This document shows positions 39,591 to 55,030 of a DNA stretch of 64,000 nucleotides, one piece after another. Position 1 is the stretch's first letter, and every line of letters begins with the position of its first letter. Both the position numbers and the translations under genes were made by a program. This DNA comes from an uncultured Erysipelotrichaceae bacterium (GTDB lineage: Bacteria; Bacillota_I; Bacilli_A; RF39; UBA660), in NCBI GenBank assembly GCA_902791625.1, contig CADAWN010000001.1, positions 35,333 to 99,332 on the forward strand, in the 5' to 3' direction. Below the pieces are notes generated by a model that worked only from the letters and a program-made list of their open reading frames with translations, did not search any database and was not told the DNA's origin.

Positions 39591-39786
39591 AAATACCCTT
39601 TTTATTTATTAATTTTCTTTAAAAATGCGACTGCGGCAAAACGTAATTTATTACAAGAATATTAACAATGCGATAGTATAATAGTTTTCACATTTTAAAG
39701 CATTAAAACTTTTTGTAATTAAATTGTAATCTTTTGTAATCAAAATGTAATTGACTTTTACTCTATTTTATGTTATATTATATATA

Positions 39787-40051: not shown

Positions 40052-40291
40052 TAAATTGATTAAAATTTTTAATTATTACTAAGTTATGAACAATGCGATA
40101 GTTACAAGTATAAATAAACTATTAACAATGCGACCGCACTATCGTATTCTTAACATAGTCTTAATAATTGCGCAATCGCAACGTTCATATTCTATTCACA
40201 AATCAATTCACAGAAATTTAATTTTTCAACTCTTGATTTTTAATATTTATTGTGGTATAATAATATTAGAAATTTAAAAGGAGGTCATAAT

Positions 40292-40600
40292 ATGACAAAA
40301 AATAACAATCTTAATTCTAAATACTGTGAGCCAATACTGCACCTTGCTAACTTGTGTTCTGCCGAGGGTATTCCTTTTGTTGTACGTCCAGCGTTTGAGG
40401 GGCTACAGCTTGTATGTCCGAGCTTAGAGAAATGGGAGTTTGATGTTATCTGCCATAGAGGTAGCTATGGACACGAGCAGGGGCTACTTGAAATTATGGG
40501 AGCTATTTGCAATGCTTGTGATGATGATGTAGAGGGCTACTTAGAAGTTGAAGAGGTTTTCGAGAGAATTAAAAAGTATTATAAAAAAAGGAGCTTATGA
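40292..40600 (+). CDS. Hypothetical early protein (102 aa), Cys/His-rich
   Basis: ATG follows AAAGGAGGT. The upstream part of the track ORF covers promoter DNA. Confidence 0.65.
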   Translation: MTKNNNLNSKYCEPILHLANLCSAEGIPFVVRPAFEGLQLVCPSLEKWEFDVICHRGSYGHEQGLLEIMGAICNACDDDVEGYLEVEEVFERIKKYYKKRSL

Positions 40601-40788
40601 TAATATAAAGGACTACTCAACTGTTGAGGAAATTTTTGAAGATATTAGAAAATGTTATAAAAAGGGAGAATAATCTCCCTTTTTCTTTTTTTAATAAAAT
40701 ATGAACAATGCGATAGACAAATTAGTTAAAATTTTTAATTAAATAAATAAAGAAAAAGGTTGATATTAATATCAACCTTTTAGTTTTC

Positions 40789-40992
40789 TTATTCTCTAAA
40801 GTCATCATAAATTTCAATTTCAATATCTGGCTTTATTCCCTCTGTGGAAGCAATTGCACCGATATAAATAACAAATTGATTCCATTCACATTCTTTTGAT
40901 AATTTTTCAAAATAAGCAAATACCTCATCAGGTACATTTACCATTTTACAAAAATCATCATCACTTGTTTTTATAAGTCTACCAATTTTCAT
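40789..40992 (-). CDS. Hypothetical early protein (67 aa)
   Basis: Track ORF with GGAGGT upstream. It has its own promoter (TTGACTTTTAGTTGGGAAAGTGTTATTAT on the minus strand). Confidence 0.65.
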   Translation of the reverse strand: MKIGRLIKTSDDDFCKMVNVPDEVFAYFEKLSKECEWNQFVIYIGAIASTEGIKPDIEIEIYDDFRE

Positions 40993-41223
40993 TTCTTTAC
41001 CTCCTAAAGTTAATCTTACTGTTGTTTTTTACTGTAACTATATAATAACACTTTCCCAACTAAAAGTCAATTACTTTTTTATTACAAAAGGTTACAATTC
41101 GGTTACAATTAAATATTAATAAATAATGTATAGTGCGGCATACTATATTATGAAAATGTAAACAGTACGATAGAGGTTTTAGTTAAAAGTTTTAATTAAT
41201 TAAATAAAAGAAAAAGGTTGACA

Positions 41224-41448
41224 TTAGTCAACCTCAATCTCGTCTATAATGAATATATCATCTAAATACTCAAAATCATTTTCAGCAAAATCATGAAATG
41301 CCTCATTTTCTCTATTGGCATCAAAGCCACAATTCTTATCAATAAAATTCCTTGCGCCAATTATTGCCTCATACATAGTATTATAAAATTTGTGTATATG
41401 AGTTCTACCGCACCAAGAACCTTCAATAATAAGAGCATATTTTTTCAT
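41224..41448 (-). CDS. Hypothetical early protein (74 aa)
   Basis: Track ORF with an RBS. The GGTTGACATTAGTCAACC terminator overlaps the stop. Confidence 0.65.
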   Translation of the reverse strand: MKKYALIIEGSWCGRTHIHKFYNTMYEAIIGARNFIDKNCGFDANRENEAFHDFAENDFEYLDDIFIIDEIEVD

Positions 41449-41613
41449 AGTATCAAATCCTTCCTCGTTTTAAAGAGTTTCGTTCTCTTATCTTGATTAT
41501 ATTATACTATATCCCAATTAAAAAATCAATAGACAAAATACACAAAGTTTCTACTTAAAAATTAGTAAAAATTTATCTTGACAAATTGAGATAAATATGT
41601 TATATTATATATA

Positions 41614-41707
41614 AAGAAAGGCAAATACAAAGTCGACCGAGGGTGCAATAGTGCCATAGGTCAAAATCTAAAACCTTAAAAAGGCGGTTTTCTATAACCG
41701 CCTTTTA
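41614..41707 (+). ncRNA. Candidate small RNA (~95 nt)
   Basis: The promoter is TTGACA (41578) -17- TATATT. No ORF follows. The body contains GACC..GGTC helices and ends in AAAAGGCGGTTttctatAACCGCCTTTT. Confidence 0.5.
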
Positions 41708-41951
41708 ACTTTTTATGAATATTCCGACCCCTTTTAAAAATTAAATTTATGTTAAATATCCGACTGACTATCGTACTGTTCATAAAATATTCAACCCCTT
41801 TTACAGTCGCCTTGTTCATAATTCCGTAATAGTTAAAAATTTTAATTAAAATGAAAATTAAAAGAGGTGCAGACGCATCCACACCCCTTAAGCATAGTCC
41901 GCAGACGTTTGCCGTTTTATTCTGTATCTGTTACCTCACAAAGTTTAACCT

Positions 41952-42131
41952 TTATCTCATAATCAGATAAATAACTCCTATTGCAATAAGACCAATAATA
42001 AAAGTTATCCATATTGGTGAAAGTACCCATACCCACGACCATTTAATTACTCCGCAAAGTTTAAGTACAATAAAAACCAATGCCAATACACTTGGAAAAC
42101 TCATTCCACCACTTACATTCTTCTTTTCCAT
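41952..42131 (-). CDS. Small membrane protein (59 aa)
   Basis: ATG at 42129-42131 follows GAGAAAGG. The protein MEKKNVSGGMSFPSVLALVFIVLKLCGVIKWSWVWVLSPIWITFIIGLIAIGVIYLIMR has two TM helices. It is below the ORF-track threshold. Confidence 0.5.
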   Translation of the reverse strand: MEKKNVSGGMSFPSVLALVFIVLKLCGVIKWSWVWVLSPIWITFIIGLIAIGVIYLIMR

Positions 42132-42232
42132 AATATCAAAACCTTTCTCGTTTTAAAGAGTTTCCGTTCTCTTATCTTGATTATATTATATCATATAATC
42201 TTGTTTTTGTCAATCGTCAAATTATACAAATC

Positions 42233-42469
42233 TTATGCTTCTATTTCATGCCTTTCTGTCCATATTACCCCTTCAATTCCAAAACTTATACGACTATCAG
42301 AGTATGAATGTGCTAATTTTGCAAAATAATCACTGTAAAAACTTTCCTTTTCATATTGTTTCAAAAACTGTCTACAATAATTATATGCACAAAGTGGATG
42401 TGAAAAAATATGAATCTTAATCTTAGAAGTTGACAAATCAAAATAATGAACCAACCAAACAAATCTCAT
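42233..42469 (-). CDS. Hypothetical early protein (78 aa)
   Basis: Track ORF with AAAGGAGGT upstream. Confidence 0.65.
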   Translation of the reverse strand: MRFVWLVHYFDLSTSKIKIHIFSHPLCAYNYCRQFLKQYEKESFYSDYFAKLAHSYSDSRISFGIEGVIWTERHEIEA

Positions 42470-42644
42470 AATAATACCTCCTTTTCTTTTCTATAATTAT
42501 TATACCATAAAATTTTTTAAAAATCAATAGATAAAATGTTAAATGTTTGTGAATTTTGCGCCGCCCTTGTTAAGAAAATATAAACGTTACGATAGGTGAT
42601 TTGATTAAAAATTTTAATTAAATAGAAAAAGAAAAAGGTTGATT

Positions 42645-43016
42645 TTACTCAACCTTTAACATAGTCATACCCATATCAAGCATTTGCTGTACAGTAAGAT
42701 TTTCAATACACCATTTTACAGACTTTTCGCTTGCTTTATCTGTATCAACAGAAAAGTTTAAAGTTCTCTCTTTAATCGTGTATTTATTTTCGTATTGTGA
42801 TAAGTATTCGTCAAAACTATTATAATAGTCTTGTTTATATTGTTCAATTGTTTTGTCTACCATATCAGGTGTGACTACTTTTTCATAATATCCGTGTAAA
42901 TTAAGCGGTCTACCAAAATAATCGAAACTTTCATATTTTTCTTTACCGTTTTTCTTTTTAATTAGAGTAAAATCTCCTGACGAAACACATACTTCAACTC
43001 TTACATAATCTTTCAT
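42645..43016 (-). CDS. Hypothetical early protein (123 aa)
   Basis: Track ORF with GGAGGT upstream. The hairpin terminator overlaps the stop. Confidence 0.65.
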   Translation of the reverse strand: MKDYVRVEVCVSSGDFTLIKKKNGKEKYESFDYFGRPLNLHGYYEKVVTPDMVDKTIEQYKQDYYNSFDEYLSQYENKYTIKERTLNFSVDTDKASEKSVKWCIENLTVQQMLDMGMTMLKVE

Positions 43017-43348
43017 TTAGATTACCTCCTAAATTATTTTCTATATATAATATAACATATATTAAAGCAAAAGTCAATTACAGAGTGATTACAAATAGTT
43101 ACAAAGTGGTTACAGGTTATGTCCAAACTATGAACGTAGCGGCGGCACAAAATGTTTCTTAAATGTAAACGATACGATAGTCAATCGCAATGTTAATATT
43201 ATCTTAACAACTTAACTGCCGCCGTATTAACATAATCTTAATAATTAAAAAATAAAACAAATTCATAAAAACTTTAAAAAATAACTATTGACTTTTAATA
43301 AAATTTATGGTATACTAATTATAGAAAAGAATAAAGGAGGTCAAAATA

Positions 43349-43450
43349 ATGTTTGACAAAATAATGACAAAAATTGGTGGAATATTTGCAGGTCTTTTGG
43401 TAACAATAGGTTTGTATGCAGTTTGCGTACTCTTTGCACTAATGTTTTAA
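43349..43450 (+). CDS. Membrane micropeptide (33 aa), first gene of a 3-gene operon
   Basis: AAAGGAGGT lies 8 nt upstream of the ATG. The peptide is MFDKIMTKIGGIFAGLLVTIGLYAVCVLFALMF. The next gene's RBS follows immediately. Confidence 0.45.
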   Translation: MFDKIMTKIGGIFAGLLVTIGLYAVCVLFALMF

Positions 43451-43463
43451 AGGAGGTTTAAAA

Positions 43464-43670
43464 ATGAGTGAAATTTACGCAAAAACGGTTTATGTCGTAG
43501 TGCAGGATGAAAGAGCTATTCATGTTTTTTATGATTATGAAAAAGCAATAGATTACATTTTTATGATTTGTATGACCAATAAAGAAGAAATTTCAAGAAA
43601 TATTCGTGATTATAATCAACATAATTCAGATTATGGAATTTTTAAAGTTGAAAGAGCTTTTATAGATTAA
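43464..43670 (+). CDS. Hypothetical early protein (68 aa)
   Basis: Track ORF with AAGGAGGT upstream. Confidence 0.65.
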   Translation: MSEIYAKTVYVVVQDERAIHVFYDYEKAIDYIFMICMTNKEEISRNIRDYNQHNSDYGIFKVERAFID

Positions 43671-43682
43671 GGAGGTTTAAAA

Positions 43683-43898
43683 ATGATGTATACAACGGAA
43701 GAAGGAAAAAGATTTCAAGCGTATGACCTTTATGATTTTCATGAGTTGCTTTGTGAAAGCGATAATCTTACAGATTGTTACAATGCTGTTTTGCAGAGAT
43801 TTGAGGATACAGACGGCGAATGTGCTTGTGAAATAAGAGATATGGAAACTATTGGTAGTTTTTCTGTTACTATTGATGGTTGGAGTGATGAAGAGTAA
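43683..43898 (+). CDS. Hypothetical acidic early protein (71 aa)
   Basis: Track ORF with AAGGAGGT upstream. The terminator GAGTTGACaaaaGTCAACTC follows. Confidence 0.65.
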   Translation: MMYTTEEGKRFQAYDLYDFHELLCESDNLTDCYNAVLQRFEDTDGECACEIRDMETIGSFSVTIDGWSDEE

Positions 43899-44129
43899 GA
43901 GTTGACAAAAGTCAACTCTTTTCTTTTGTTTGTTTAATTAATTTTTTTAACTATTACGAAATTATGAATACCACGACACTATATAATATTAAGGAATTAT
44001 GTATCTTAATTAAAAATCAATATACAAAATAACCAAAAATCTACCTTAAAATTTGTCTAAAAATCTACTTGACAATTCCCCTTTTCTATGCTATACTATA
44101 TACAAGATAAGATTTAGGAGGTAGATTAA

Positions 44130-44360
44130 ATGAAATCTGATAAATTTTTTGAAAATCTTAATTATGTTGTGCTTATGGGTTTAATAATCGCACAATGTAT
44201 AATTGGTAAATGGTATTTAATAGGTCAAGGAATTTACTTGATTTGCAATACAATTTCAGTTACAAGAGATTTTGTACTGAAAAGACCAAAAGCAGATAAA
44301 ATAAAAGATTTGTCTTGTACTGCAATAACAATAGGTTTGATATTGTTAGCAATAAGGTAG
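44130..44360 (+). CDS. Small membrane protein (76 aa) that ends in TAG
   Basis: Track ORF with TAGGAGGT upstream. The TAG stop lies inside the terminator stem AATAAGGTAgaaatTACCTTATT. Confidence 0.65.
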   Translation: MKSDKFFENLNYVVLMGLIIAQCIIGKWYLIGQGIYLICNTISVTRDFVLKRPKADKIKDLSCTAITIGLILLAIR

Positions 44361-44504
44361 AAATTACCTTATTGCTTTTTTGTTAATAATGCGATAGAAT
44401 GCCCGCTAAAATATTACAAAACTATGAATAATGCGATAGAGATTTAGTTAAAATTTTTAATTAAATAGAAAAAAGAAAAGGTTGACATTAGTCAACCATT
44501 TTCC

Positions 44505-44858
44505 TTATACCATAGTTAAATCAAAAGTCAACTGATTATCAGTTTCATATTTAACCTCAAATTCCGTAAAATGTCCGTCAGCATAAACAATTCTACTTGT
44601 ATATTCAAGAGGAAAAGTCAAACGCTTATCTATATAATCAATAAAATTGCTCATAACTTTTCTTTTAGCTTCCAAATACTCAGGTTCAATAAACTGGTCA
44701 AGTATTGATTTACCCCTGACGTATTTATCTTTCATATCCCAGAAAAAATACCTCCAACTATTAGAATCTGCAAAACCTCTTAATTCACCCCATTGTCTGT
44801 CATCATTACATTCTTCAACAAAATAATAGGCTAATTCATAACTGTTATTAAATCTCAT
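44505..44858 (-). CDS. Hypothetical early protein (117 aa)
   Basis: Track ORF trimmed to the ATG (MRFNNSYEL..) after AAAGGTGG. Confidence 0.6.
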   Translation of the reverse strand: MRFNNSYELAYYFVEECNDDRQWGELRGFADSNSWRYFFWDMKDKYVRGKSILDQFIEPEYLEAKRKVMSNFIDYIDKRLTFPLEYTSRIVYADGHFTEFEVKYETDNQLTFDLTMV

Positions 44859-45052
44859 AAATAATACCACCTTTTAAAGTTTCGTTGTTGTTCTTTACTA
44901 TATATAATATAACATATTTCAAGCAGTTTGTCAATGAATATTTTGTAAACAATAGGTAAACAATTTATTAACGTTGCGCCGCCCTTCATTATGAACAGAT
45001 TATGAACATCACGACGGAGCGCGGCACAGAAAAAGAGGAACAAATGTTCCTC

Positions 45053-45340
45053 TTAATCTTCCTCTTCAACTATTTCGTTAATCTGCAAAATATCTCCCCA
45101 CTCGTCATTTACTTTGCACTTACAATAAAGTATAGCACAAAACTGCCAAAAATCCAATTCGCAAGAGTTTTCGTTAATTTCAATAAATTTACCATTAACC
45201 TCTGCCGTTATTTCTTCTCCTTCAAAACAACCAATACAAAAATCAAAAACTGCCTGACGTGCAAATTTTTCAAACTCTATTGTTTTGGTATCTTCAAAGA
45301 ATTTAATTTCATTTGTTGTCATATTAGTTGCAAATAACAT
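45053..45340 (-). CDS. Hypothetical acidic early protein (95 aa)
   Basis: Track ORF with AAAGGAGGT upstream. It is the second gene of a 2-gene operon. Confidence 0.65.
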   Translation of the reverse strand: MLFATNMTTNEIKFFEDTKTIEFEKFARQAVFDFCIGCFEGEEITAEVNGKFIEINENSCELDFWQFCAILYCKCKVNDEWGDILQINEIVEEED

Positions 45341-45354
45341 TTATAAAACCTCCT

Positions 45355-45537
45355 TTATTCAAAAACATCAATTTCTCTTATTGCATAAAAATCATCAACA
45401 GCACCATAATCTTCTATTTGCTTTTCAACAGAATCTTTGTCATATTCTGTCATTGATGCAATATCTTCTATCGCCCTTGATTTTTTAAGATAAGCATAAT
45501 CTATAATGCCGTTTATTTCTACTGCATATACTGTCAT
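45355..45537 (-). CDS. Hypothetical early protein (60 aa)
   Basis: Track ORF. The promoter TTGACATTTAATAATTTTTATGGTATAAT lies on the minus strand near 45560-45600. Confidence 0.6.
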   Translation of the reverse strand: MTVYAVEINGIIDYAYLKKSRAIEDIASMTEYDKDSVEKQIEDYGAVDDFYAIREIDVFE

Positions 45538-46098
45538 TTTAAATTCAACTCCTTTTCTTTTACTATAATCATTATACCATAAAAATTATTAAATGTCAAT
45601 AGAAATAAAATTAAACTTTTATTAATTAGTTAAAAGATTTAATTATTACAGAATTATGAACACTGCGATAGTACTACATTATGAACATACTATAAATATT
45701 ACGACCGCACTGCCGCACTGTTAATATCTTCTTAACAAACTCAACTGCCGCACCGTTCACAATTTCGCAATAATTAAAAATTCTAACCAATTAACAAAAA
45801 CTTAATAAAAAAAATTTTCAAAACCTATTGACAAACAACTTGAAATATGCTATACTATATATAGTGAAAGAGAGAAAAACAAAAAACTCTCAAAAGTAAC
45901 TTGACTTTCCCCAATAGTCAAAACGCACAAAAGTAAACAATAAAGTTTGTGCAAAATGCCAGTTGACTTTCCTTGAAAAGTATGCTATAATGTATACAGA
46001 ACAAAGGAAAGAGAGGCAAAGAAAATCCCAAAATCATACGTCCCCAATAACAAATCAATGTCAGCCGATAGACGTTAAAACGGAGAAAGAGGTAAATT

Positions 46099-46449
46099 AT
46101 GACACAGAGAGATTTTTACAACGCAATCGCTAACAACACAGAGCTTGCACCTGAGCTTACAGATTTTGCAAAGGAAGCTATCAAGGCACTCAACAAGAAG
46201 AATGAGGCACGCAATAGCAAGGCAAACGCAAAGAAGGCAGAGGTCAATGCACCTATTATTGCCGCTATCCGTGAGGTACTTGCAGACGGCAAGCCGCATT
46301 TTGCAGGTGATGTTGCCACAGCAGTAGAGCAGTCACTCCCAAAGGTTGCCGCACTTGTTAAGACTATGGCAGATGTAGCCGTATCAAAGGCAAAGCCGGA
46401 GGGCGCAAAGGCAAAGAAAACTGTTTACACTCTTGTTGTTGAGCAGTAG
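46099..46449 (+). CDS. Small Lys/Ala-rich protein with a winged-helix-like C-terminus, paralog 1 of 4; ends in TAG
   Basis: Track ORF MTQRDFYNAIANN... The leader contains GGAGAAAGAGG. Tandem promoters lie at about 45826 and 45962. GC content is higher and the codons look optimised (AAG/GCA-rich). Confidence 0.7.
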   Translation: MTQRDFYNAIANNTELAPELTDFAKEAIKALNKKNEARNSKANAKKAEVNAPIIAAIREVLADGKPHFAGDVATAVEQSLPKVAALVKTMADVAVSKAKPEGAKAKKTVYTLVVEQ

Positions 46450-46777
46450 TCAATAAATGGAAACGGTGAACAAAAGTTCGCCGTTTCTTTTTTTCTAATT
46501 AGTTAAAAATTTTAACTATTACGAAATTATGAACATTGCGATAGTTCTATTTATAACAAAAGTATGAACAATACGATAGGTTAATGTCGTATTATTAACA
46601 TAATCTTAACATTTTGTACTGCCGCACTGTTCATATTTTCGCAACATTTTAGCACTTTAAACTACTAAAGTGTTCGTAACCACTTTGTAACCTTTTGTAA
46701 TAATTCTGTAATTGACTTTTATAGTTATATGTTGTATAATACGTATAGAAACTTAAAGAAAGACAGGTGTTCAAAAA

Positions 46778-47440
46778 TTGAATAAGCGTTTGTATATTGT
46801 ACTTGACACGGAAACTACAAACAACATGGATTTTCCTTTTGTTTATGATTTAGGTTTTTCCGTTGTTGACAAAACAGGCAAGGTATATTACAAAAGGTCA
46901 TTTGTAATTTATGATATTTATGTGCTTTGCAAAGACTTAATGAGAACAGCGTACTATGCAAATAAACTCCCACAATATGAAATTGACTTGAAATCTAAAA
47001 AGCGTGAACTTGTTAGATTTTCCACGGCAAGAAAAATTATACTCCAAACAATGAAAAAGTATAATATATATGCAATTATGGCACACAATATGCGTTTTGA
47101 CCTTAATGCACTTAATACCACTTTAAGATATATAACAACATCACAACAGAGGTATTTTTTCCCACAAGGCACAAGACTTTGGTGCACTTTGGCAATGTCA
47201 AGGTCAATTTTCAAAAACAAACCTACATACAAGAGGTATTGTGAAGAAAACGGATACTTGACAAGAAACAAGCAAATAAAACTCACAGCGGAAATTATTT
47301 ACAGGTTTATTACTGGAAATAATGACTTTGTTGAAAATCACACGGGACTTGAAGATGTAATGATAGAAAAGGAAATTTTTTCCTACTTGAAAAGACAGCA
47401 TAAAAAAATGCAGTTGACTTACTGGAAAGAAACGGCATAA
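46778..47440 (+). CDS. DEDDh (DnaQ-like) 3'-5' exonuclease, copy 1
   Basis: The track ORF contains the motifs VLDTETTN, AHNMRFDLNALN and HTGLEDVMIEKEIF (H-x4-D). Confidence 0.75.
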   Translation: MNKRLYIVLDTETTNNMDFPFVYDLGFSVVDKTGKVYYKRSFVIYDIYVLCKDLMRTAYYANKLPQYEIDLKSKKRELVRFSTARKIILQTMKKYNIYAIMAHNMRFDLNALNTTLRYITTSQQRYFFPQGTRLWCTLAMSRSIFKNKPTYKRYCEENGYLTRNKQIKLTAEIIYRFITGNNDFVENHTGLEDVMIEKEIFSYLKRQHKKMQLTYWKETA

Positions 47441-47599
47441 GCCGTTTTTTTCTACCCCTATTTAGTTAAAAGATTTAACCTTTGCCGCAAGTCGCAACGT
47501 TCACAATTTATTCACACTATCGCATTATACATACCCCGTTAATAATTAAAAAATAAAACTAATTCACAAAAACTTAATAAAAAAATTTTCAAAAACCTA

Positions 47600-47628
47600 T
47601 TGACAAATAAATATATATGTACTATAAT
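47600..47628 (+). promoter_or_regulatory. Consensus early promoter, given as an example of the family
   Basis: TTGACA, a 17-nt spacer, TATAAT, then TATATACAGAAAAG. The same layout sits in front of nearly every gene between 36 and 61 kb. Confidence 0.7.
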
Positions 47629-47660
47629 ATATACAGAAAAGAAAAAAGGAGGTTGTCAAT

Positions 47661-48113
47661 ATGGCAATAGAAAAAACAATTAACTTTGATTTAGATGGGA
47701 CTTTAGCAGACCTTTACGGCGTGGAAAATTGGCTTGCATATTTGCAGGCAGGTGATAGTACACCTTATGAAACAGCAAAGCCCCTTGTAAAGATGCAGGT
47801 GCTTGCAAGAATGTTGAATAACAAAAAAAGACAGGGTTTTACAATAAATGTTATATCATGGCTTGCTAAAAATTCAAACCCTGAATATGATGAAAAGGTA
47901 AAAAATGCTAAATTAAATTGGCTGAAAAAACATCTCAAAAGCGTTGAATTTGATAATATATTTATTGTAGAATATGGTACTCCCAAGCAAAATTTGGCAA
48001 AAGGTTTTTTATTCGATGACGAGGTAAATAATAGAATAAACTGGAAGGGTATTGCTTTTGATGTGAATAATATAATAAATGATTTAAAGACATTAACTAA
48101 TTACACCTCCTAA
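47661..48113 (+). CDS. HAD-superfamily phosphatase (5'-nucleotidase-like)
   Basis: The track ORF has N-terminal FDLDGTLAD (the DxDxT motif I) and a late FDDE. Confidence 0.65.
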   Translation: MAIEKTINFDLDGTLADLYGVENWLAYLQAGDSTPYETAKPLVKMQVLARMLNNKKRQGFTINVISWLAKNSNPEYDEKVKNAKLNWLKKHLKSVEFDNIFIVEYGTPKQNLAKGFLFDDEVNNRINWKGIAFDVNNIINDLKTLTNYTS

Positions 48114-48343
48114 ATTATGGAAATGGCGAACAAGTGTTCGTCATTTCTATTTTGTTATTTAGTTAAAAATTTTAACTGCGGCACAGGGTATCGCAATGTT
48201 CACATTTCCGTAACATTTTAACGCTTTAAAGTATTAAAGTAAAACTGTAACTACTTTGTAACTATTCGTAACTAAATTGTAATTGACAAATCAAAAGATA
48301 TATGCTATAATGTATACAGAAAAGAAAAAAGGAGGTTGCTAAT

Positions 48344-48715
48344 ATGGCAAAGTCAGTAAAAACAATGAAAACTGAAAAGAAAAATGAGTACATTGAAAAA
48401 ATTACCAAATTCCTTCTTGAAAATGAGGAGGACGTGGTAAGAACTGGAAGCGGTGAACTTGCTTTTCCTATTGTCCTTGAAAATGGAGATGAATGCTTTA
48501 TTACTCTCAAAGTATCAATACCCACAGGGACAAGAGATGGTGAAGATTATAACGGTTATGCAGTAGCAAACAGTTATAAAATTGACTGCGAAAAATCCGC
48601 AGTAAAAGCGGAAAATGCAAGGAAAGCAAAAGAAAAGAAAATTGCCGCAGACAAAAAACGCCGTGAAAACTCCGCAAAAATTAAAGCGGAGAGAGAAAAG
48701 AGAAAAGAGGGATAA
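48344..48715 (+). CDS. Hypothetical protein with a basic KKIAADKKRRE tail (paralogous to 59353..59772)
   Basis: Track ORF with AAAGGAGGT upstream. It shares its C-terminal motif and overall layout with the minus-strand genes at 59.0-59.8 kb. Confidence 0.65.
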   Translation: MAKSVKTMKTEKKNEYIEKITKFLLENEEDVVRTGSGELAFPIVLENGDECFITLKVSIPTGTRDGEDYNGYAVANSYKIDCEKSAVKAENARKAKEKKIAADKKRRENSAKIKAEREKRKEG

Positions 48716-48880
48716 CCTCTTTTCTTTTTATTTAATTAGTTAAAAATTTTAACTATTGCCGCAAGTCGTATTGTTAATAGTTTCTTAACATTTTTGTACT
48801 GCCGCACTGTTCATACTTTGGTAATAATTAAATCTTTTAATCAATTCACAAAAAGTTAATAAAAAAATTTTCAAAACCTA

Positions 48881-48909
48881 TTGACAAATCGGAAAATCTA
48901 TGTTATACT
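48881..48909 (+). promoter_or_regulatory. Consensus early promoter for paralog 2
   Basis: TTGACA, a 17-nt spacer, then TATACT with a TG extension. Confidence 0.65.
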
Positions 48910-48990
48910 ATATACAGAGTTAAGGGAAAAGCCCTTAAACAATAAAGTAAAGAGAGCCGAACTCAATAAAACGGAGAAAGTAGGTAAATT

Positions 48991-49332
48991 ATGACACAGA
49001 GAGATTTTTACAATGCAATCGTTAAGGCAGATGTAGCACAGGAGTTGAAGGACTATGCAAGCGCACAGGTTCAGGCACTTAACAACAAGAACTCCGCAAG
49101 AAATGTCAAGGCAAGGGCAAAAAAGGCAGATGAAAACAAACCCCTTGTAGCACAGATTAAGACAATCCTTGCAGACGGTCAGGCACATACTTGCTCTGAA
49201 ATTTCCGCAAGCACTGGCGCAAATATTCCTAAGGTATCCTCCCTTATAACCACATATTTCAAGGATACTGTTATAAGAGAAACTGTTAAGGTAGACAAGA
49301 AGAGGGCAGTTGCATATCGCCTTGCACAGTAG
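48991..49332 (+). CDS. Small winged-helix-like protein, paralog 2 of 4; ends in TAG-TAA
   Basis: Track ORF MTQRDFYNAIVKAD... Its leader AGAGAGCCGAACTCAATAAAACGGAGAAAG is conserved. Confidence 0.7.
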   Translation: MTQRDFYNAIVKADVAQELKDYASAQVQALNNKNSARNVKARAKKADENKPLVAQIKTILADGQAHTCSEISASTGANIPKVSSLITTYFKDTVIRETVKVDKKRAVAYRLAQ

Positions 49333-49540
49333 TAAAAATTGGAAAACGGCAGAAATGCCGTTTTTCTTTTCACTTAATTAGTTAAAAATTTTAACTATTG
49401 CCGCGGGTCGTAATGTTCATAATTCCATAATATTTAAAATAAATAACAAATTCACAAAACTTTAATAAAATAACTATTGACTTTTAATATTTTTTATGTT
49501 ATACTGTATATAGAAAATAAAAAGAAAGGTGGTTGCTAAT

Positions 49541-49972
49541 ATGGCAAATATGTATTTTAATGATGATTTTGAGGTATGTTCAATAAGTAAAGACCCTGCG
49601 TATCTTTACATTGATGACGTAGACAAGTTCCTTTATGATTGCGGTGATGGTTACGTTTCTGATGGTGTAGATAAGTCAGGCGTTTATCTATGGAATAACT
49701 ACTATTGTGTATGGGATTTAGCCGACCCTGAAATTGATAAGAAAATTAGAGCATTAGTTGAGGAGATTAACACTCTCCGTCAAGAAAAATCACACCAGGA
49801 TAATAATAAAGTTACTGGGTGGAATATTTCAGTTACTCTTGACTCAGGTTTGTGTGTTAAAATCAATAATGAACCTATTTCAATGGATAAAGTCCCTGAG
49901 ATAATAAATACTCTTCTTAAACCATACTTTTTCGGTAAGAGAATTATAGAATTTGAGATAGTTGCGGAGTAA
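49541..49972 (+). CDS. Hypothetical early protein (143 aa)
   Basis: Track ORF trimmed to the ATG after AAAGGTGGT. Confidence 0.65.
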   Translation: MANMYFNDDFEVCSISKDPAYLYIDDVDKFLYDCGDGYVSDGVDKSGVYLWNNYYCVWDLADPEIDKKIRALVEEINTLRQEKSHQDNNKVTGWNISVTLDSGLCVKINNEPISMDKVPEIINTLLKPYFFGKRIIEFEIVAE

Positions 49973-50158
49973 TCCGCAACTTTTTTATTTTAGAGTTAGT
50001 CATTCCTAACCGACCGTCGCATCATTCACACTTTCGTAACATTTTATAGCGGCGGCACAAAATAACCAAAAATTACTCCTAAACTTTGTGCATTTTGCCA
50101 ATAGACAACCTCTTTAATCTATGCTATAATAAAAATAGAAATTAAGGAGGTTGAACCA

Positions 50159-50790
50159 ATGGCAAAAAAGAAATTCTATATGGTACTTGATACCGAAACG
50201 GCAAACGGACTTGATGACCCTCTTGTTTATGATATAGGTTTTGCAATCATAGACAAAAAAGGTCAAGTCTATCTTGAAAAATCCTTTGTTATTTACGATA
50301 CTTTTGTTTTGATGAAGGACTTAATGCAGACGGCATATTATTCCGAAAAAATCCCACAGTATGAGGATGACTTAAAAAACGGTAAAAGAAAACTTGTTAC
50401 CCTTGCAACCGCACAATCAATAATTGCATATAACCTTAAAAAGTTTAATGTTAGTGCGGTAATTGCCCACAATATGAGATTTGACTATAACGCCCTTAAT
50501 ACAACCCTCCGTTATTTAACTAAATCTCAAAAGCGTTATTTTCTCCCCTATAATACTACAATTTGGTGCAGTCTTGCGATGGCACGAACAACAATAGGCA
50601 AACAAAAAACGTATCAACTTTGGTGTAAAGACTTACTGCCGAAATTCTCTACCGATATATAACAGATAATAACGATTTTATCGAAAGCCATACAGGACTG
50701 GAGGACGTTCTTATCGAAAAGGAAATTTTTGCACATTGTATTCGTCAACACAAGAAAATGCAACGCACATACTGGAAGGAAACGGCATAA
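50159..50790 (+). pseudogene. DEDDh exonuclease copy 2, disrupted by a frame-shifting internal deletion
   Basis: Residues 1-160 align with copy 1. After LWCK the frame breaks (stop at 50660-50662). The rest (RLTAEILYRYITDNNDFIESHTGLEDVLIEKEIF..WKETA) continues in another frame to TAA at 50788-50790. About 34 nt are missing relative to copy 1. Confidence 0.6.
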
Positions 50791-50975
50791 GCCGTTTTCT
50801 TTTTTATTTAATTAGTTAAATTTTTTAACTGCGGCACAAGGTGTCGCATTGTTCACAGTTCAGTAATAATTAAATCTTTTTACTAATTAACAAAAACTTT
50901 AAAAAATAACTGTTGACATTTAATAAAATCTATGCTATACTGTATATAGAAAATAAAAAGAAAGAAGGTTTTAAA

Positions 50976-51167
50976 ATGGCAACTTTTACAGTACGTTTTA
51001 TCCAGGAGTATACCTACGAGGTGGAGGCAAATGATGTTGATGAGGCAATAGATAACGCCGAGGAAGAGTTTAGTTTTGATATGTGTTCACCAATAGCCAA
51101 TACTACATGGGACGAAATGATAGTAGAAGATGAAGATGGAGAAGAAGTCGCACATGGATATATGTAA
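50976..51167 (+). CDS. Hypothetical acidic protein (63 aa)
   Basis: ATG follows AAGAAGGT. The upstream part of the track ORF is promoter DNA. Confidence 0.6.
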   Translation: MATFTVRFIQEYTYEVEANDVDEAIDNAEEEFSFDMCSPIANTTWDEMIVEDEDGEEVAHGYM

Positions 51168-51182
51168 AGGAGGTTAAAAATA

Positions 51183-51416
51183 ATGAATATTATTACTGCA
51201 CCAAGATACCAAGATTTTAGCGGACATATCCATAAAACAAAAGAGGATTGTGTAAATGCAGAAAAGAATTTTAAAGAAAATATTATTCAGACATTTAAAG
51301 AATTGGCAAAAGGTTGTAGAAATCAAAAAAATTGTAAAGATTGTCCTTTTCAACATGAAATTAAATGTTTTTTTGGTGAAACAACAGGTGAACTTCCAAT
51401 ACACTGGGATATTTAA
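51183..51416 (+). CDS. Cys-rich small protein (77 aa), paralog of 51810..52064
   Basis: Track ORF with AAAGGAGGT upstream. It shares the blocks PRYxDFxGxIxxTxxxCxNAExNF..FxELAKGC. Confidence 0.65.
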   Translation: MNIITAPRYQDFSGHIHKTKEDCVNAEKNFKENIIQTFKELAKGCRNQKNCKDCPFQHEIKCFFGETTGELPIHWDI

Positions 51417-51609
51417 GAAGGGGATACCCCTTCTTTTTTTTATTTTAATTAGTTAAAAAATTTAACTGCGGCGCAAGGTGTCGCGGCATTCATATTCTCT
51501 TAATAATTAAAACAACTAACTAATTAATAAAAATTTAATTTTATTTCTATTGACTTTTAATAAAAACTATGTTATAATAAATATAGAAAATAAAGAGGAG
51601 GTAGTCCAA

Positions 51610-51804
51610 ATGCTAACTATTAGAGATTTAATCTGTCAAGGTGCCGACCTTGATATGCCAATCTGTGTATTGGCACGAACTCATGATGAAAAAGGTAACT
51701 GCACAGGCGTATACTATTCTTATGCTGAAATACCATCGGACAATTTCACAATTGTAGATGGTATACTCACTATAATGACAGATGTTAATGATGTAGGAGG
51801 TTAA
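51610..51804 (+). CDS. Hypothetical protein (64 aa)
   Basis: ATG follows GAGGAGGT. The upstream part of the track ORF is promoter DNA. Confidence 0.6.
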   Translation: MLTIRDLICQGADLDMPICVLARTHDEKGNCTGVYYSYAEIPSDNFTIVDGILTIMTDVNDVGG

Positions 51805-51809
51805 AAACA

Positions 51810-52064
51810 ATGAGAGTAATCAATGAACCAAGATACGAAGATTTTAAAGGAAAAATCTACAGGACACAAAAAGAGTGTATAAACGCAGAAAACAACTTTG
51901 TAGAAGATGTTTTCCAGTTGTTTGAAGAATTGGCAAAAGGTTGCGGAAAATATGGAGCCGAGTGCAATGGTTGTCCCTTTTATGATAATAACTTAGATTA
52001 TTGTTCTATTCAAGCAACAACAGGCGATGCACCAGCAAATTGGATATTTAAAGAAGGGGAATAA
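51810..52064 (+). CDS. Cys-rich small protein (84 aa), paralog of 51183..51416
   Basis: Track ORF with GGAGGT upstream. Confidence 0.65.
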   Translation: MRVINEPRYEDFKGKIYRTQKECINAENNFVEDVFQLFEELAKGCGKYGAECNGCPFYDNNLDYCSIQATTGDAPANWIFKEGE

Positions 52065-52276
52065 TCCCCTTTTTTATTTATTTAATTAGTTAAAAATTTT
52101 AACTTTCTTGCTCTGTCGCAACGTTCACAAATCCTTAACATATTACAAAACTATGAACATAGCGTCCGTCCATTTGGTTAAAACATTTAACTAATTAACA
52201 AATCCTTAACATCTCCCATGATCGAACATACGTTCGCCTCCACCATTGCATAATCTATCTATCCCCCTTCCATAAT

Positions 52277-52397
52277 CGAGCTGCAGCTGTCGAGCTACAA
52301 TCGAGCTACAGTTCCATGCGAGCTGCAAGCTGCGGCAATCAACGAGCTGGGGCGGCACTTTAGTTAAAATTTTTAACTAATTCTCCAGAATCGAGCT
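52277..52397 (+). repeat. Six CGAGCT(R)CA repeats where the two transcription blocks converge
   Basis: CGAGCT occurs at 52277, 52291, 52302, 52319, 52343 and 52392. Confidence 0.8.
52360..52380. repeat. Perfect copy of the 21-bp palindrome TTAGTTAAAATTTTTAACTAA
   Basis: Read directly from the sequence. At least 17 further near-copies lie between 40.7 and 54.5 kb and are listed in the findings. Confidence 0.85.
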
Positions 52398-52408
52398 GCA
52401 ATAAAAAA

Positions 52409-52435
52409 GATTGACTTTATAAAATAAAGCCAATC
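52409..52435. terminator. Bidirectional hairpin terminator between the convergent blocks
   Basis: GATTGaCTTTAT-aaa-ATAAAGcCAATC, flanked by A/T runs. Confidence 0.55.
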
Positions 52436-52465
52436 ATTAATATTTTACTCAAAAAATTCTACTAT

Positions 52466-53224
52466 CTAATTATTTAACAAATCATTCTTTAAGTCCTCAG
52501 AAATCTTTTGTCCCTCTGTATTCAAATACTTAACCGCTTCTCCGCCATTGGTATAATAATTAACTGACTTTAATTCAAATACACTTACTTTTGTACCCAA
52601 ATTAGTCGTTTCAATTGTAATTGTATAGTCTATTAAATCAAGTTTTTTAAGCCATATTAGCCCATTAATAATAGCTCTATTATTATCTCTATCTTTACTA
52701 AGTTTTAAAAGACCCCTTAAGTCTGCAATTGTAAATACCCTATCACAAGAACTCATATAACAAAAACGTTCTTGCATTTCTGCTAATAATAAATATAGTT
52801 TCAATTCCTACTCAGAAACGGCATAGTCATACTAAATTCTATTTAGTGTTTCTCGCGGCATAATACGATAAGGAGTTGCCTTTGGAATACTGTAGTAAGT
52901 CGCACCATCTTTCTTACGTAACATAAATTCTTTATCCCAAGTTAGGTCTAAGTGCCGCGGCCCTTCGTATTTTATTAAACCATGTTGTTCCAATAGATTC
53001 CAGTACTTTTTAATAGTATTTGGATGCATATGTAATATTTCTTTTATTTTATTAACAGTAAAGTCTTTATGTGAGAATACTCTAGGTTTATTCTTTCCAT
53101 TAAAAGTTGAAATTGAAACCAAGTATACATATAATCGCATTGAATTCCTTTGTACTTCAACTTCATCTGAAACAATCGGTAAGTTTTCTCCTGTGGCTTT
53201 TAACTGTTTTTCATTATTACGCAT
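52466..53224 (-). CDS. Replication-initiator-like protein (two winged-helix-like halves) joined across two in-frame TAGs
   Basis: Track ORFs 52832..53233 and 52466..52804 are in the same frame. They are separated only by TAG-YDYAVSE-TAG (TAGs at 52832-52834 and 52808-52810). The second half has no usable RBS. ATG at 53224 follows AGGAGGTGA, and iterons lie immediately upstream. Confidence 0.5.
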
Positions 53225-53323
53225 AAATATCACCTCCTATTATATAAGTAGGATTGAAAGACTTTTTCTCTAAAAAAATCTACACCGATTAAGATTTTAC
53301 TATAATGTTTTATTCATCTTCAT

Positions 53324-53421
53324 TTTTCCTTACTGAATCTTCACTTTTCCTTACTAATTTATCAGTTTTCCTTACTGAGTTTATCAATTTTCCTTACTGA
53401 ATCTTCACTTTTCCTTACTGA
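53324..53421. repeat. Five iterons TTTTCCTTACTGA at 21-22 bp spacing
   Basis: Copies start at 53324, 53345, 53366, 53388 and 53409. Confidence 0.85.
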
Positions 53422-53589
53422 AATCGGCTTACATATAATAGATTACTCTTTTACGAAAGAGTAAGCAGAAAAGTTGTCCTTTGTCGGCCTAAAGGACCAA
53501 AGGCCGCTCGCCACTTCGTGGCTCACTTCAAATCAAAAGATAGAATAACTAGGATTAAGGATAGGGGTATTTATTTTATTTAAAAAGTT

Positions 53590-53697
53590 AGAACCCCTAT
53601 TTATTATACCCCGTTTTATTATAACCCCTATTTATTAGAACCCCTATTTACTTTGAGGTAACTAAAATTTACTATGGGTAACTAAAATTTACTATGG
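53590..53697. repeat. Additional origin-region repeats: (A/G)ACCCCTATTTA x3-4 and GGTAACTAAAATTTACTATGG x2
   Basis: Read directly from the sequence. The tandem 21-mers are at 53657-53677 and 53677-53697. Confidence 0.8.
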
Positions 53698-53903
53698 ACT
53701 TAACTAATTTTTACTTTGTGCCGCCCTCCATAAGTCAAAACCAAGCGACCCCTTATTCCTAACAACCCCTATGTTTTGTCTGGGATAATGGGCCGCGGCG
53801 CAGCGTAATTCCAAAGCGGGGCGGCAAATTAGTTAAAATTTTTAACAAAATACCCTCCCCTATTACAAAACCTCTTTAGTTAAAAATTTTAACAAATTCA
53901 GTA

Positions 53904-53933
53904 ATAAAAAAAAGAGATACCTTTCGGTATCCC
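53904..53933 (-). terminator. Intrinsic terminator after paralog 3
   Basis: On the minus strand, GGGATACCGAAAGGTATC is followed by TCTTTTTTTT. Confidence 0.7.
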
Positions 53934-53966
53934 TTTCTTCGTTACTCTTAGTCATTATCCTTTGCC

Positions 53967-54230
53967 TTATAGAGCAATAACTGCTACCTTAGCAATCTTA
54001 ACACCAAGAGCCTCAGCAAGCTCAGCAGTACCATGAACCTTGCCGTCTCCAAGAATAGTATTGAACTGCTCAACAAGAGGTCCGTTAATCTCTGCTTTCT
54101 TCTCTGCTGCCTTAGCTGCTCTCTTGCTATTTACCTTATCAAGATTAGCAAGTCCAGCCTTAGCAAACTCCTTAACCTCAGCCTCAACGTTAGCATTAAC
54201 AATAGCCTCAAAAAACTCTCTCTTAGTCAT
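53967..54230 (-). CDS. Small winged-helix-like protein, paralog 3 of 4 (87 aa, shorter)
   Basis: Track ORF trimmed to the ATG (MTKREFFEAIVNAN..) after GAGAAAGAGGT. Confidence 0.65.
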   Translation of the reverse strand: MTKREFFEAIVNANVEAEVKEFAKAGLANLDKVNSKRAAKAAEKKAEINGPLVEQFNTILGDGKVHGTAELAEALGVKIAKVAVIAL

Positions 54231-54839
54231 AATGTACCTCTTTCTCCTAGTCATTACTAGGTAATTAAAATGTTGATATAACTTATTAGACTTTCAATCG
54301 AAAGGAAGTAAAGAGAAGAAACGAACCCATTTTGCGCAATATTTATGCGTTTTTATTACTTTTTAGTGGCTTTTTTCTCTTTTTTCTTCCTTTCTCTCTC
54401 TTTTCTATATATATTATAGCAAAAATTTTAGAAAAAATCAACCATTTAACTTTAAAAATTATTTAAAATTAAAGTTAATTAGTTAAAAATTTTAATTAAT
54501 TCGTTTTTTAGACGAGAAAAGTTTATTTTATAGGAAAATTTAACGCCTTACGGCTATTGATTACACTTATATGCCGCGGACAGGTATTGGATGGGATTAG
54601 GGAAAGATTAGGATTGGAAGAGAAATACTCCTTTATTAATATATTAATATATTATATTAAAATATTGACTTTTAGTGTTTGTTTGCGCACACACAAAATT
54701 ATAGTATTGTACACTATTCTATACTATTGTTAACTATCCCTATTTTTGACACTATGGAGAGCTCCTCCAGGGGATAGGCATTAGTCTTACTTAGTAGTAT
54801 AGATGCCCTCTTAGATTATTGTTTACACTTTTTATTTAC

Positions 54840-55030
54840 GTTTTCCTTTTACTACTTTCCTTTTCTTTTCTTTTTTTTCTTCTTCCTTCCCCTTCCTTTC
54901 TTTTCTTTCTTCTTTTATTATTATATTATTATTATATTATTATATTATTATTATATTATTATATTTATATATTATATTATATTATCTTCCTTTCCTTCTT
55001 CCCTTTCTTCTTCCCTTCCCTTTCTATAAT
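54840..55030. repeat. Homopyrimidine (CT-rich) tract, then (TTA/TAT)n, then a second CT-rich tract
   Basis: Read directly from the sequence. The track ORF 54819..55136 over it is a low-complexity artefact. Confidence 0.8.

Follow-up and report, generated by a model that had tools for sequence, protein, structure and literature searches.

The window analysed here, 64,000 nucleotides from an uncultured phage with a GC content of ~30%, carries a repeated 21-bp palindrome, TTAGTTAAAAWTTTTAACTAA, in an array of small genes that lies beside a block of recoded late genes. All genes between 1.5 and 34.9 kb are on the minus strand and form long open reading frames (ORFs) only with TAG as a sense codon, and the ORF coverage rises from 16.6 to 44.6 kb once TAG is read in this way. 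This block (1478-34862) contains the late and structural genes, encoding a portal, a terminase and a tape-measure-sized protein of 2,474 aa, whose ORF has up to 71 in-frame TAGs. The terminase shares ~38% identity with its counterparts in Geobacillus virus E3 and in Enterococcus and Bacillus phages. A sigma-like ORF at 33669-34862 (397 aa) matches a phage sigma-factor family (phrog_5767, E = 5e-20) and has 18 in-frame TAGs, so that TAG suppression would be required to make the protein. The only tRNA in the window is a tRNA-Arg(ACG) at 63200-63275, and none of the suppressor type is present. The region from 35 to 54.5 kb holds ~30 tiny genes in the standard code on both strands, and nearly every gene or operon of two to three genes has a near-consensus sigma-A promoter, a strong ribosome-binding site and an intrinsic terminator. 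About 30 promoters fit TTGACA-17-TATAAT at 10-12 of the 12 positions, most with an extended -10 element and each followed by a small gene. Terminator-like sites number 46 compared with 7.9 expected, and their hairpins fold at -12 to -20 kcal/mol. The sigma-A-type promoters together with the standard genetic code suggest that 35-54.5 kb is the early region.

A search of the window with the palindrome gave 17 matches at three or fewer mismatches, compared with 0.10 expected (a maximum of 1 in 100 shuffles), all of them within 40722-54499. Allowing five mismatches adds the copies at 38476, 40056, 43934, 45626 and 47462 and brings the total to 22 between 38476 and 54499 (Table 1). The copies are thus clustered within 16 kb, and no convincing further copy was found elsewhere in the 64 kb at this threshold; a look-alike at 33381 lies inside a TAG-containing ORF. 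These counts bear out the preliminary description of the region, in which a repeated palindrome with its only perfect copy at 52360 had been reported. The start positions given there are mostly correct, except that 53874 should be 53876 and 54469 should be 54479. A copy near 41825 that had been called degenerate is a good copy at 41829 with two mismatches, and those at 45626 and 47462 are weak (four to five mismatches).

The placement of the copies is regular. Seventeen of the 22 lie a few bases past the T-run of a terminator with a strong hairpin of -12 to -20 kcal/mol, on its transcriptionally downstream side, and ~17 of the 23 terminators between 38.8 and 54 kb have a palindrome after them. 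Three copies (38476, 45626 and 54479) are located 17-38 nt upstream of a -35 element in divergent or boundary regions, and two (52174 and 53829) are within a repeat-rich, origin-like stretch. All 22 fall in predicted untranscribed gaps. The palindrome had been proposed to mark almost every cassette boundary, which is a fair description of 40-54.5 kb but not of 36-39.7 kb. It had also been proposed that each copy lies past a terminator and ahead of the next promoter. The terminator side of this claim agrees with the 17 copies but not with the three promoter-side and the two origin-like copies, and no promoter follows the copies at 40722 and 44444.

The palindrome belongs to a composite module in which an intrinsic terminator is followed by the palindrome, one or more copies of a 17-bp box, a half-palindrome tethered to the promoter, an AT-rich stretch and the near-consensus sigma-A promoter. 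The box, TATGAACAATGCGATAG, has 30 copies at three or fewer mismatches compared with 0.32 expected, distributed over 36352-50857 on both strands, mostly plus to the left of ~46.6 kb and minus to the right. It usually lies 4-8 nt beyond the palindrome where both are present, and at 36-39.7 kb it follows terminators that have no palindrome. Boxes also form pairs, either direct with a distance of 35 bp or head-to-head. The box varies between lineages, which have only the core GTTCAYA in common. The half-palindrome, TAATAATTAAA, precedes seven -35 elements at a distance of either 49 or 59-60 nt, and these two distances differ by one helical turn. In the relatives, the promoter-side element is often a good full palindrome, such as that at 2680 of locus L009, 16 nt before the -35 element. 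Inspection of hexamers and spacings showed that neither the palindrome nor the box fits a sigma-A promoter, and both are absent upstream of the late operons, so that they were also rejected as targets of the phage sigma factor. A second class of upstream region has three to four GTAAC/GTAAT repeats at a spacing of 10-11 bp that run into the -35 element, e.g. gtaaccactttgtaaccttttgtaataattctgtaattgac. Such repeats, found at the promoters at 41080-41110, 43080-43115, 46670-46715 and 48240-48285, look like a phased binding array.

Table 1. Positions in the window of the palindrome copies, half-palindromes, one complete module and the winged-helix genes.
Feature	Position	Strand	Remarks
Palindrome, degenerate (5 mismatches)	38476-38496		between divergent promoters, 17 nt upstream of -35 at 38513
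Palindrome, degenerate	40056-40076		directly past + terminator 40016-40046
Palindrome	40722-40742		past - terminator 40754-40781; convergent junction, no promoter downstream
Palindrome	41179-41199		past - terminator 41214-41235
Palindrome	41829-41849		past - terminator 41862-41889
Palindrome	42601-42621		past - terminator 42634-42657
Palindrome, degenerate	43934-43954		past + terminator 43897-43920; the ortholog in L031 is a good copy
Palindrome	44444-44464		past - terminator 44480-44497; convergent junction
Palindrome (4 mismatches)	45626-45646		between divergent promoters, 27 nt upstream of - strand -35 at 45599
Palindrome	46499-46519		past + terminator 46459-46488
Palindrome (5 mismatches)	47462-47482		past + terminator ~47430-47450
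Palindrome	48159-48179		past + terminator 48117-48150
Palindrome	48736-48756		past + terminator 48697-48729
Palindrome	49378-49398		past + terminator 49341-49366
Palindrome	50812-50832		past + terminator 50774-50803
Palindrome	51449-51469		past + terminator 51415-51435
Palindrome	52086-52106		past + terminator 52049-52076; start of repeat-rich origin-like stretch
Palindrome	52174-52194		within origin-like stretch, no neighbouring terminator
Palindrome, only perfect copy	52360-52380		preceded by GGGGCGGCACT and CGAGCTGC repeats; - terminator 52409-52435 28 nt away
Palindrome, first of pair spaced by 47 bp	53829-53849		preceded by GGGGCGGCAAA
Palindrome, second of pair	53876-53896		past - terminator 53916-53931; left edge bounds 1.47-kb indel 52402-53875
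Palindrome, last of cluster	54479-54499		38 nt upstream of - strand -35 at 54441
Half-palindrome TAATAATTAAA	43239-43249	+	49 nt before -35 at 43288
Half-palindrome (1 mismatch)	45768-45778	+	60 nt before -35 at 45828
Half-palindrome	47540-47550	+	60 nt before -35 at 47600
Half-palindrome	48822-48832	+	59 nt before -35 at 48881
Half-palindrome (1 mismatch)	49428-49438	+	49 nt before -35 at 49477
Half-palindrome	50864-50874	+	49 nt before -35 at 50913
Half-palindrome	51501-51511	+	49 nt before -35 at 51550
Complete module	48697-48909	+	terminator 48697-48729, palindrome 48736-48756, reverse boxes ~48768 and 48799-48815, half-palindrome 48822-48832, AT-rich stretch, TTGACA-17-TATACT 48881-48909
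Winged-helix paralog, 116 aa	46099-46449	+	candidate binder
Winged-helix paralog, 113 aa	48991-49332	+	candidate binder; AlphaFold2 pLDDT 93; helix of residues 17-60 (44 residues), then winged helix-turn-helix
Winged-helix paralog, truncated to 87 aa	53967-54230	-	full length (118 aa) in L033 and L010
Winged-helix paralog, fourth	59842-60201	-	outside the cluster; closest to the versions of other palindrome-bearing lineages

Relatives were found by an exact-pattern scan of IMG/VR and a scan of metagenomes. The former yielded contigs of 66-170 kb with multiple copies, one of which (loci L009, L010 and L031) is 75-83% identical to the window, while the others share only a few genes at 65-75% identity; IMG/VR hits outside this family were coincidental and within coding sequence. 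A closer relative, L033, is 80-92% identical. The metagenome scan gave 50 loci, ~33 of them with at least three palindrome copies at about one per kb, including contigs of 41-48% GC, and L065 has 23 matches in 14.9 kb compared with 0.01 expected. All of these relatives have the palindrome past terminators. In the window and 14 loci of relatives, a terminator stem by a strict definition ends 6-16 nt upstream of the palindrome in 75 of 122 copies. The consensus of the palindrome is identical in three lineages, with 1.6-1.8 bits per position, whereas the flanks are low in information and lineage-specific. The contigs of 41-48% GC keep this consensus as well. The expectation that relatives would carry the motif is thus confirmed. 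Two relatives contain gene-less tandem arrays of palindrome and box units, one with five units of 53 bp (L011, 12059-12291) and the other with units of 35 bp (L019, 6387-6500).

Outside the family the sequence is rare. The exact 21-mer gave only eight solitary hits in 185,579 bacterial and archaeal species genomes and was recurrent in none. One of the contigs hit, CAKVIM010000004.1 (L039, 172,193 bp), was deposited in a 'Candidatus Melainabacteria' metagenome-assembled genome; it has five palindrome copies with the grammar of the family and is most likely a mis-binned phage genome of this family. The palindrome is therefore not a host regulon motif, and the idea of a binding site for a host factor was rejected on the same counts. 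The 15-mer core of the palindrome did not occur in the literature searched as full text. Among 50,697 phage records, a BLAST search for near matches to the region and to one module found none. A blastn search for distant matches with the whole module showed generic AT-rich promoter similarity only, to Staphylococcus and Enterococcus phages, and the locus of the best distant match, in a Staphylococcus phage, has no palindrome.

Sequence comparisons at orthologous positions of the window and L033, L031 and L010 showed that the palindrome is well preserved, with identities of 0.92, 0.91 and 0.90, respectively. The corresponding values are 0.87, 0.80 and 0.72 for the spacers, 0.87, 0.81 and 0.74 for the genes, 0.90, 0.81 and 0.79 for the box, and 0.96, 0.95 and 0.93 for the -35 and -10 hexamers. 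The differences between palindrome and spacer have p values of ~0.007, 0.016 and 0.0003 in the same order (hand chi-square from counts). The palindrome is under purifying selection and about as constrained as the promoter hexamers. A palindrome with no function of its own would be either a passenger in a spreading repeated module or a mere hairpin of RNA or DNA. It does always travel with other repeated blocks, and modules are duplicated within genomes. However, a passenger is not expected to keep an identity of 0.90-0.92 while the spacer falls to 0.72, nor an unchanged consensus across lineages and in genomes of 41-48% GC whose other module blocks differ. Together with the absence of compensatory changes in the arms and the weakness of the hairpin, described below, this makes a lack of function extremely improbable.

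The palindrome has a 10-1-10 layout, in which the cores GTTAA and TTAAC are 10 bp apart. The only commonly variable paired positions are 4 (G or A) and 18 (C or T), and they vary independently. The compensated A-T pair was seen 4 times compared with 5.0 expected, whereas the A-C mismatch occurs 17 times. When folded as RNA, the palindrome reaches only -4.2 kcal/mol, and no fold is obtained for the variants with A at position 4. The independent variation of the half-sites and the weak fold indicate that the palindrome is read as duplex DNA, probably by a dimeric protein, with two half-sites one helical turn apart. A role as RNA hairpin, cruciform or terminator was rejected because of the weak fold and the arms without covariation.

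Analogous elements are present in other phages. The contigs used for this comparison were chosen because they encode distant members of the winged-helix family that is represented by four genes in the window (Table 1). L099 and L100 have 16 and 9 copies, respectively, of the palindrome TTATACGTAnTACGTATAA, which lies past the terminator and, in L099, 8-9 nt upstream of 13 of the 14 -35 elements. L098 (42% GC) has 12 copies of the palindrome TTAGACGnnnnnCGTCTAA (TTAGACGn5CGTCTAA) past the terminator, and a half-site related to it, GAGGTCTAACTT, adjoins the -35 element. A different repeated motif, TTTTCAGAATTGTCAGACAATTT, follows the terminators in L102. All four contigs thus have arrays of small genes with a lineage-specific palindrome or repeat in each gap between terminator and promoter, a position at which such elements may be a general feature of these arrays. 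Within the compact arrays, the palindrome takes the place of an UP element and is thus clearly part of the promoter, and these analogues in L099 and L098 are the strongest argument for the window palindrome as a regulatory operator. By analogy, the strong copy of the window may have been displaced to the terminator side by the insertion of the box. A second palindrome, GTTAGCAnnnGCTAAC or GTTAGTAnATACTAAC, is located between terminator and box in some relatives (L065 at 4130-4150 and 4950-4970; L019 and L024). The outer TTAG...CTAA is common to the window palindrome, the L098 palindrome and the second palindrome GTTAGCAnnnGCTAAC of L065, L019 and L024.

The sequence evidence leans towards the palindrome being an operator-type site for a sequence-specific dimeric DNA-binding protein that would exert array-wide control of the early cassettes or insulate them. 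A dimeric regulator site for global early control, as had been proposed, remains the best-supported reading in view of the selection, the unchanged consensus, the independent half-sites, the restriction to this phage family and the analogues, although the anchoring to terminators does not favour it. The predicted protein is most likely encoded by the phage. The strong copies always lie in short gaps that are not transcribed, either past a terminator or flanked by divergent promoters, so that RNA polymerase would not sweep the bound protein off. One protein on ~20 sites would act on the whole early array together, and the most plausible action would be the shut-off or timing of the strong early promoters. 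The palindrome on the terminator side and the half-site upstream of the -35 element may cooperate, in which case the DNA would loop or wrap across the box. Insulation of adjacent cassettes is a further possible action of the sites.

Several observations weigh against an operator. Four cassettes at 36-39.7 kb have similar promoters with the box only and no palindrome. The strong copies are anchored to the terminator and not to the promoter, the next -35 element being 17 to ~200 nt away, compared with 49 or 59-60 nt for the half-palindrome and 8-9 nt for the L099 palindrome. At 40722 and 44444, the palindrome is enclosed by convergent terminators and no promoter follows it. The density of the palindrome is highest at a putative origin, where 1.8 kb of the window holds 5 copies and 1.2 kb of L065 holds 11; this could point to a replication role instead. 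Neither the ranking of neighbouring genes nor the comparison of recognition helices established a cognate binding protein. The recognition helix of the winged-helix proteins differs among the window paralogs and the lineages (NIPKVSSL, SLPKVAAL and NFQKVATV vs. STQKASAL), and the helix of lineage B, STQKASALLRQM, is also found in L102, a fragment of 3.7 kb that carries a different repeat and lacks the palindrome.

The small winged-helix proteins had been suggested as binders in the preliminary description. They have a true winged-helix fold and are the commonest neighbours of the palindrome, but they are only candidates because their recognition helices do not track it. The family comprises 1,487 clusters at 50% identity and has no Pfam model. 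Its C-terminal domain matches winged helices of the MarR, TrmB and Lrp types, and structural matches of the model are generic only. In a clustering of all ORFs of 38 palindrome-rich contigs, the family ranks first, with 38 members in 21 contigs, followed by the exonuclease-like (18 contigs), basic-tail (16) and 5'-nucleotidase (16) families; it is present in 16 of the 24 palindrome loci of at least 6 kb. With recognition helices that give no support and generic fold matches, it was rejected as the specific binder. The basic-tail family (48344-48715, 58977-59330 and 59353-59772) combines an N-terminal helix, a small beta-sheet and a long lysine-rich C-terminal helix, and its gene often lies beside a winged-helix paralog, also in the distant phage L098. 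It was likewise rejected, since its model (pLDDT 83) has no significant structural match and neither Pfam nor PHROG has a match to the family. In scans of ~40 window proteins, a subset of the window ORFs, against both databases, no recombinase, ParB or HUH enzyme appeared.

The anchoring to terminators would also suit a boundary element, at which the bound protein acts at the 3' end of the cassette only and has no direct effect on promoter firing. Such a protein would stop RNA polymerase from reading through or from diffusing onwards after termination, or form a supercoiling barrier, and thereby prevent interference between the dense, strongly transcribed cassettes of both orientations. This is consistent with the terminator spacing, which is constant across lineages despite differing hairpin sequences, with the copies in promoter-less convergent junctions and with the location of every copy in a predicted untranscribed gap. 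However, three window copies and many in the relatives are beside promoters with no terminator nearby, and the analogous palindrome of L099 is fixed to the -35 element. Judging from polymerase footprint sizes, a block 8-15 nt past the stem would moreover stall the polymerase before the U-tract is transcribed, with no obvious help to termination. We therefore regard a boundary element without any effect on promoters as unlikely.

The origin-like stretch at 52100-53900 is rich in other repeats, with CGAGCTGCA/CGAGCTACA at 52260-52400, five TTTTCCTTACTGA iterons at 53290-53420, four CCCCTATTTATT at 53570-53650 and two GGTAACTAAAATTTACTATGG. These repeats flank a weakly DnaD-like gene with in-frame TAGs (52466-53224). 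The DnaD-like gene and the iterons (52402-53875) are absent from L010 and L033, whereas both the CGAGCTGC repeats and the GGGGCGSC-palindrome unit persist even in the 41% GC contig L065. Palindrome pairs 48 bp apart, comparable to that at 53829/53876, also occur in L033, L010 and L023. The palindromes might accordingly be replication or segregation sites, bound by an origin-organising or centromere-binding protein and clustered at the origin in the manner of parS, with the post-terminator position merely protecting the complexes from transcription. The density around the CGAGCTGC repeats, the iteron-like repeats and the weakly DnaD-like gene points in this direction, as do the pair spacing of 47-48 bp conserved in four genomes and the gene-less arrays of L011 (5 x 53 bp) and L019 (35-bp units). 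However, most copies are distributed one per cassette over 16 kb and paired with promoter modules, and the Rep-like cassette is dispensable, as shown by its absence from L010 and L033. No ParA/ParB-type protein is among the scanned proteins of the 64-kb window, which is part of a genome of probably ~160 kb, and the analogues in L099 and L098 are promoter elements. A replication or segregation role is thus quite unlikely.

Comparisons of relatives that are 75-90% identical showed that the content and the order of the cassettes differ strongly. Eight insertions, deletions or replacements were mapped at base level. The two-cassette insertion at 43978-44997 (vs. L031) is flanked by direct copies of the box, and L031 has two extra cassettes that boxes border in the same way. 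In L033, palindrome-box units whose 17-nt boxes are identical enclose a cassette of 487 nt. An insertion in L033 at 43144 is flanked by a 110-nt promoter block, and the loss of the 49541-49972 cassette in the same relative joined two promoter blocks. The indel 52402-53875 is flush on one side with the palindrome at 53876, the only junction of this kind. The mapped junctions involve the box in four events, the commonest case, and a promoter block in two, and others lie at gene borders. Many homology blocks also end at gene borders, where a gene is replaced within a conserved regulatory frame. The direct repeats that flank the junctions, 17 to 110 nt in length, point to homologous recombination between repeated modules. 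An apparently recent junction in L045, at the terminator at 48140, runs into unrelated coding sequence; it was discarded as a probable chimeric scaffold.

The earlier proposal that the palindromes are recombination joints is supported by these junctions for the repeated module as a whole, but not for the palindrome itself. Synteny breakpoints were expected on the palindrome; one coincides with it, and most are in the box, the promoter blocks or at gene borders. A recombinase could in principle cut the palindrome, for example with a 7-7-7 layout (TTAGTTA / AAAWTTT / TAACTAA), and move or invert cassettes as in integrons. Besides the strong differences in cassette content and order between the relatives, the presence of cassettes in both orientations and the flush indel at 53876 would suit such a site, and in a rough hand count ~6 of 44 homology-block ends are within 10 nt of a palindrome compared with ~2 expected. 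However, the base-level junctions in the box or promoter blocks, with their direct repeats, fit homologous recombination, and the many blocks that end at gene borders leave the regulatory frame intact. In addition, the scanned window proteins include no recombinase, and the palindrome has no attC architecture. The mapped junctions provide no specific support for a recombinase acting on the palindrome, and a site-specific recombination site is very unlikely.

A broader conjecture, put forward tentatively and with low probability, is that TTAGTTAAAAWTTTTAACTAA, TTATACGTAnTACGTATAA and TTAGACGn5CGTCTAA represent an undescribed class of terminator-anchored boundary elements. The bound protein would partition 20-30 mini-operons into insulated units and switch the array off, or over to the TAG-recoded late programme, in one step, and the module would also drive cassette exchange between phages. 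Large uncultured gut phages with TAG recoding are common; the window shows ~30 autonomous mini-genes, each in the same regular module frame with its one strictly conserved palindrome. If a single protein does read the palindrome, it would be the master switch of the early phase of host takeover and offer a direct experimental handle. The module could also be used in synthetic biology as a compact set of promoter, terminator and operator parts for low-GC hosts.

Further features of the window were noted beside the palindrome. A basic zinc-ribbon protein of 56 aa, encoded at 37762-37932 behind a perfect TTGACA-17-TATAAT promoter, is one of the best-conserved early proteins, with an aa identity of 66-87% between lineages, and its PHROG match is phrog_1257 ('ribosome associated inhibitor A; zinc finger domain', E = 5e-11). 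The window has an ORF-free stretch of ~100 nt at 41578-41715, bounded by a promoter (41578-41606) on one side and a terminator (41679-41706) on the other. This unit is kept in L033 (92%) and L031 (75%) and may be a small RNA; in L031, a sequence resembling it, CGAGGGTGCA...GTGCC.TAGGT, is found as a 5' leader. The unit has no Rfam match, and an Rfam scan of 34.8-56 kb gave nothing meaningful. The second copy of the exonuclease-like gene (50159-50790) is frameshifted, with ~34 nt missing at 50631 compared with L043 (ENA ERZ27280489 k141_497179), which is otherwise 100% identical to the window. At the edge of the early array, a low-complexity stretch (54819-55030) has long polypyrimidine runs (ttccttttctttt...) around simple repeats of the ATT/ATTATT type and could mark a boundary, e.g. 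the end of a terminal repeat. The motif GTGCCGCGACTACAAAA has six matches compared with 0.00 expected (28705, 33164, 33236, 33635, 50042 and 57242). Three of them are within the 540-bp stretch that separates the sigma-like gene from the first late operon, and the motif is a candidate for a late or middle promoter or another regulatory site.

Known systems share parts of this arrangement. The promoter-early stem-loop cassettes (PeSLs) of T4-type phages consist of an AT-rich stretch, a promoter and a stem-loop only, and recombination between the motifs is reported to give rise to encapsidated mini-circles (Arbiol et al. 2010, PMC2839356; Comeau et al. 2014, PMC4122927). PeSLs and the window modules are both short repeated intergenic units with a strong sigma-70-type early promoter and a terminator stem-loop, present in dozens of copies and concentrated in plastic regions rich in small genes of unknown function. 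Where close relatives differ by indels or replacements, the repeated module borders the changed segment in both systems, in line with homologous recombination. However, the window module is longer (~150-250 bp) and adds the lineage-invariant 21-bp palindrome and the lineage-variable 17-bp box. Moreover, the window phage is TAG-recoded and not T4-type, its terminase being nearest to those of Geobacillus, Enterococcus and Bacillus phages. The likeness to T4-type cassettes that had been drawn thus extends to the repeated promoter and terminator module bounding indels, but not to the extra palindrome and box or to the phage group. The use of regulatory cassettes as substrates for gene shuffling, known from the T4-type phages that infect Gram-negative bacteria, is thereby extended to a distant group of phages.

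Integron attC sites are also inverted-repeat elements at the 3' end of a cassette, and the palindrome holds GTTAAAA and TTTTAAC, which resemble their core (GTTRRRY) and inverse core (RYYYAAC). However, attC sites are 57-141 bp long with an R''-L''...L'-R' architecture, whereas the 21-bp near-perfect palindrome has neither L boxes nor extrahelical bases. The attC cassettes are promoterless and in one orientation, whereas the window cassettes have promoters and terminators of their own and occur in both orientations. No IntI or other integrase appeared in the Pfam and PHROG scans of part of the window ORFs, and the junctions are mostly outside the palindrome. The palindrome differs from REP/BIME elements in its weak fold (-4.2 kcal/mol), its position beyond the terminator and its lack of compensatory changes; the scanned window proteins include no HUH-type (RAYT) transposase.

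Arrays of very small early genes are also found in the host-takeover module of the Bacillus phage SPO1 and in the long-terminal-repeat early regions of related phages, where, as here, nearly every small early gene has its own strong sigma-A promoter, strong ribosome-binding site and terminator. We know of no conserved post-terminator palindrome there. The C1 operators of phage P1 form a dispersed multi-operator regulon. On plasmid RK2, the dispersed KorB operators (OB) act together with a second, promoter-proximal site in concert with KorA (PMC11790492). As in these systems, one short operator would be repeated ~12-20 times over a mobile genome at tens to hundreds of bp from the promoters, and the cooperation of a promoter-near second site with a distal one may be compared with the window arrangement of palindrome, box and half-palindrome. 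The scanned window proteins include neither a ParB/CTPase-type nor a C1-type protein, the palindrome is unrelated in sequence to these operators, terminator anchoring is not known from either system, and regulation is here a prediction. By analogy, the palindrome system appears to combine known themes, namely regulatory cassettes like the PeSLs and a dispersed multi-operator regulon like that of KorB/OB on RK2.

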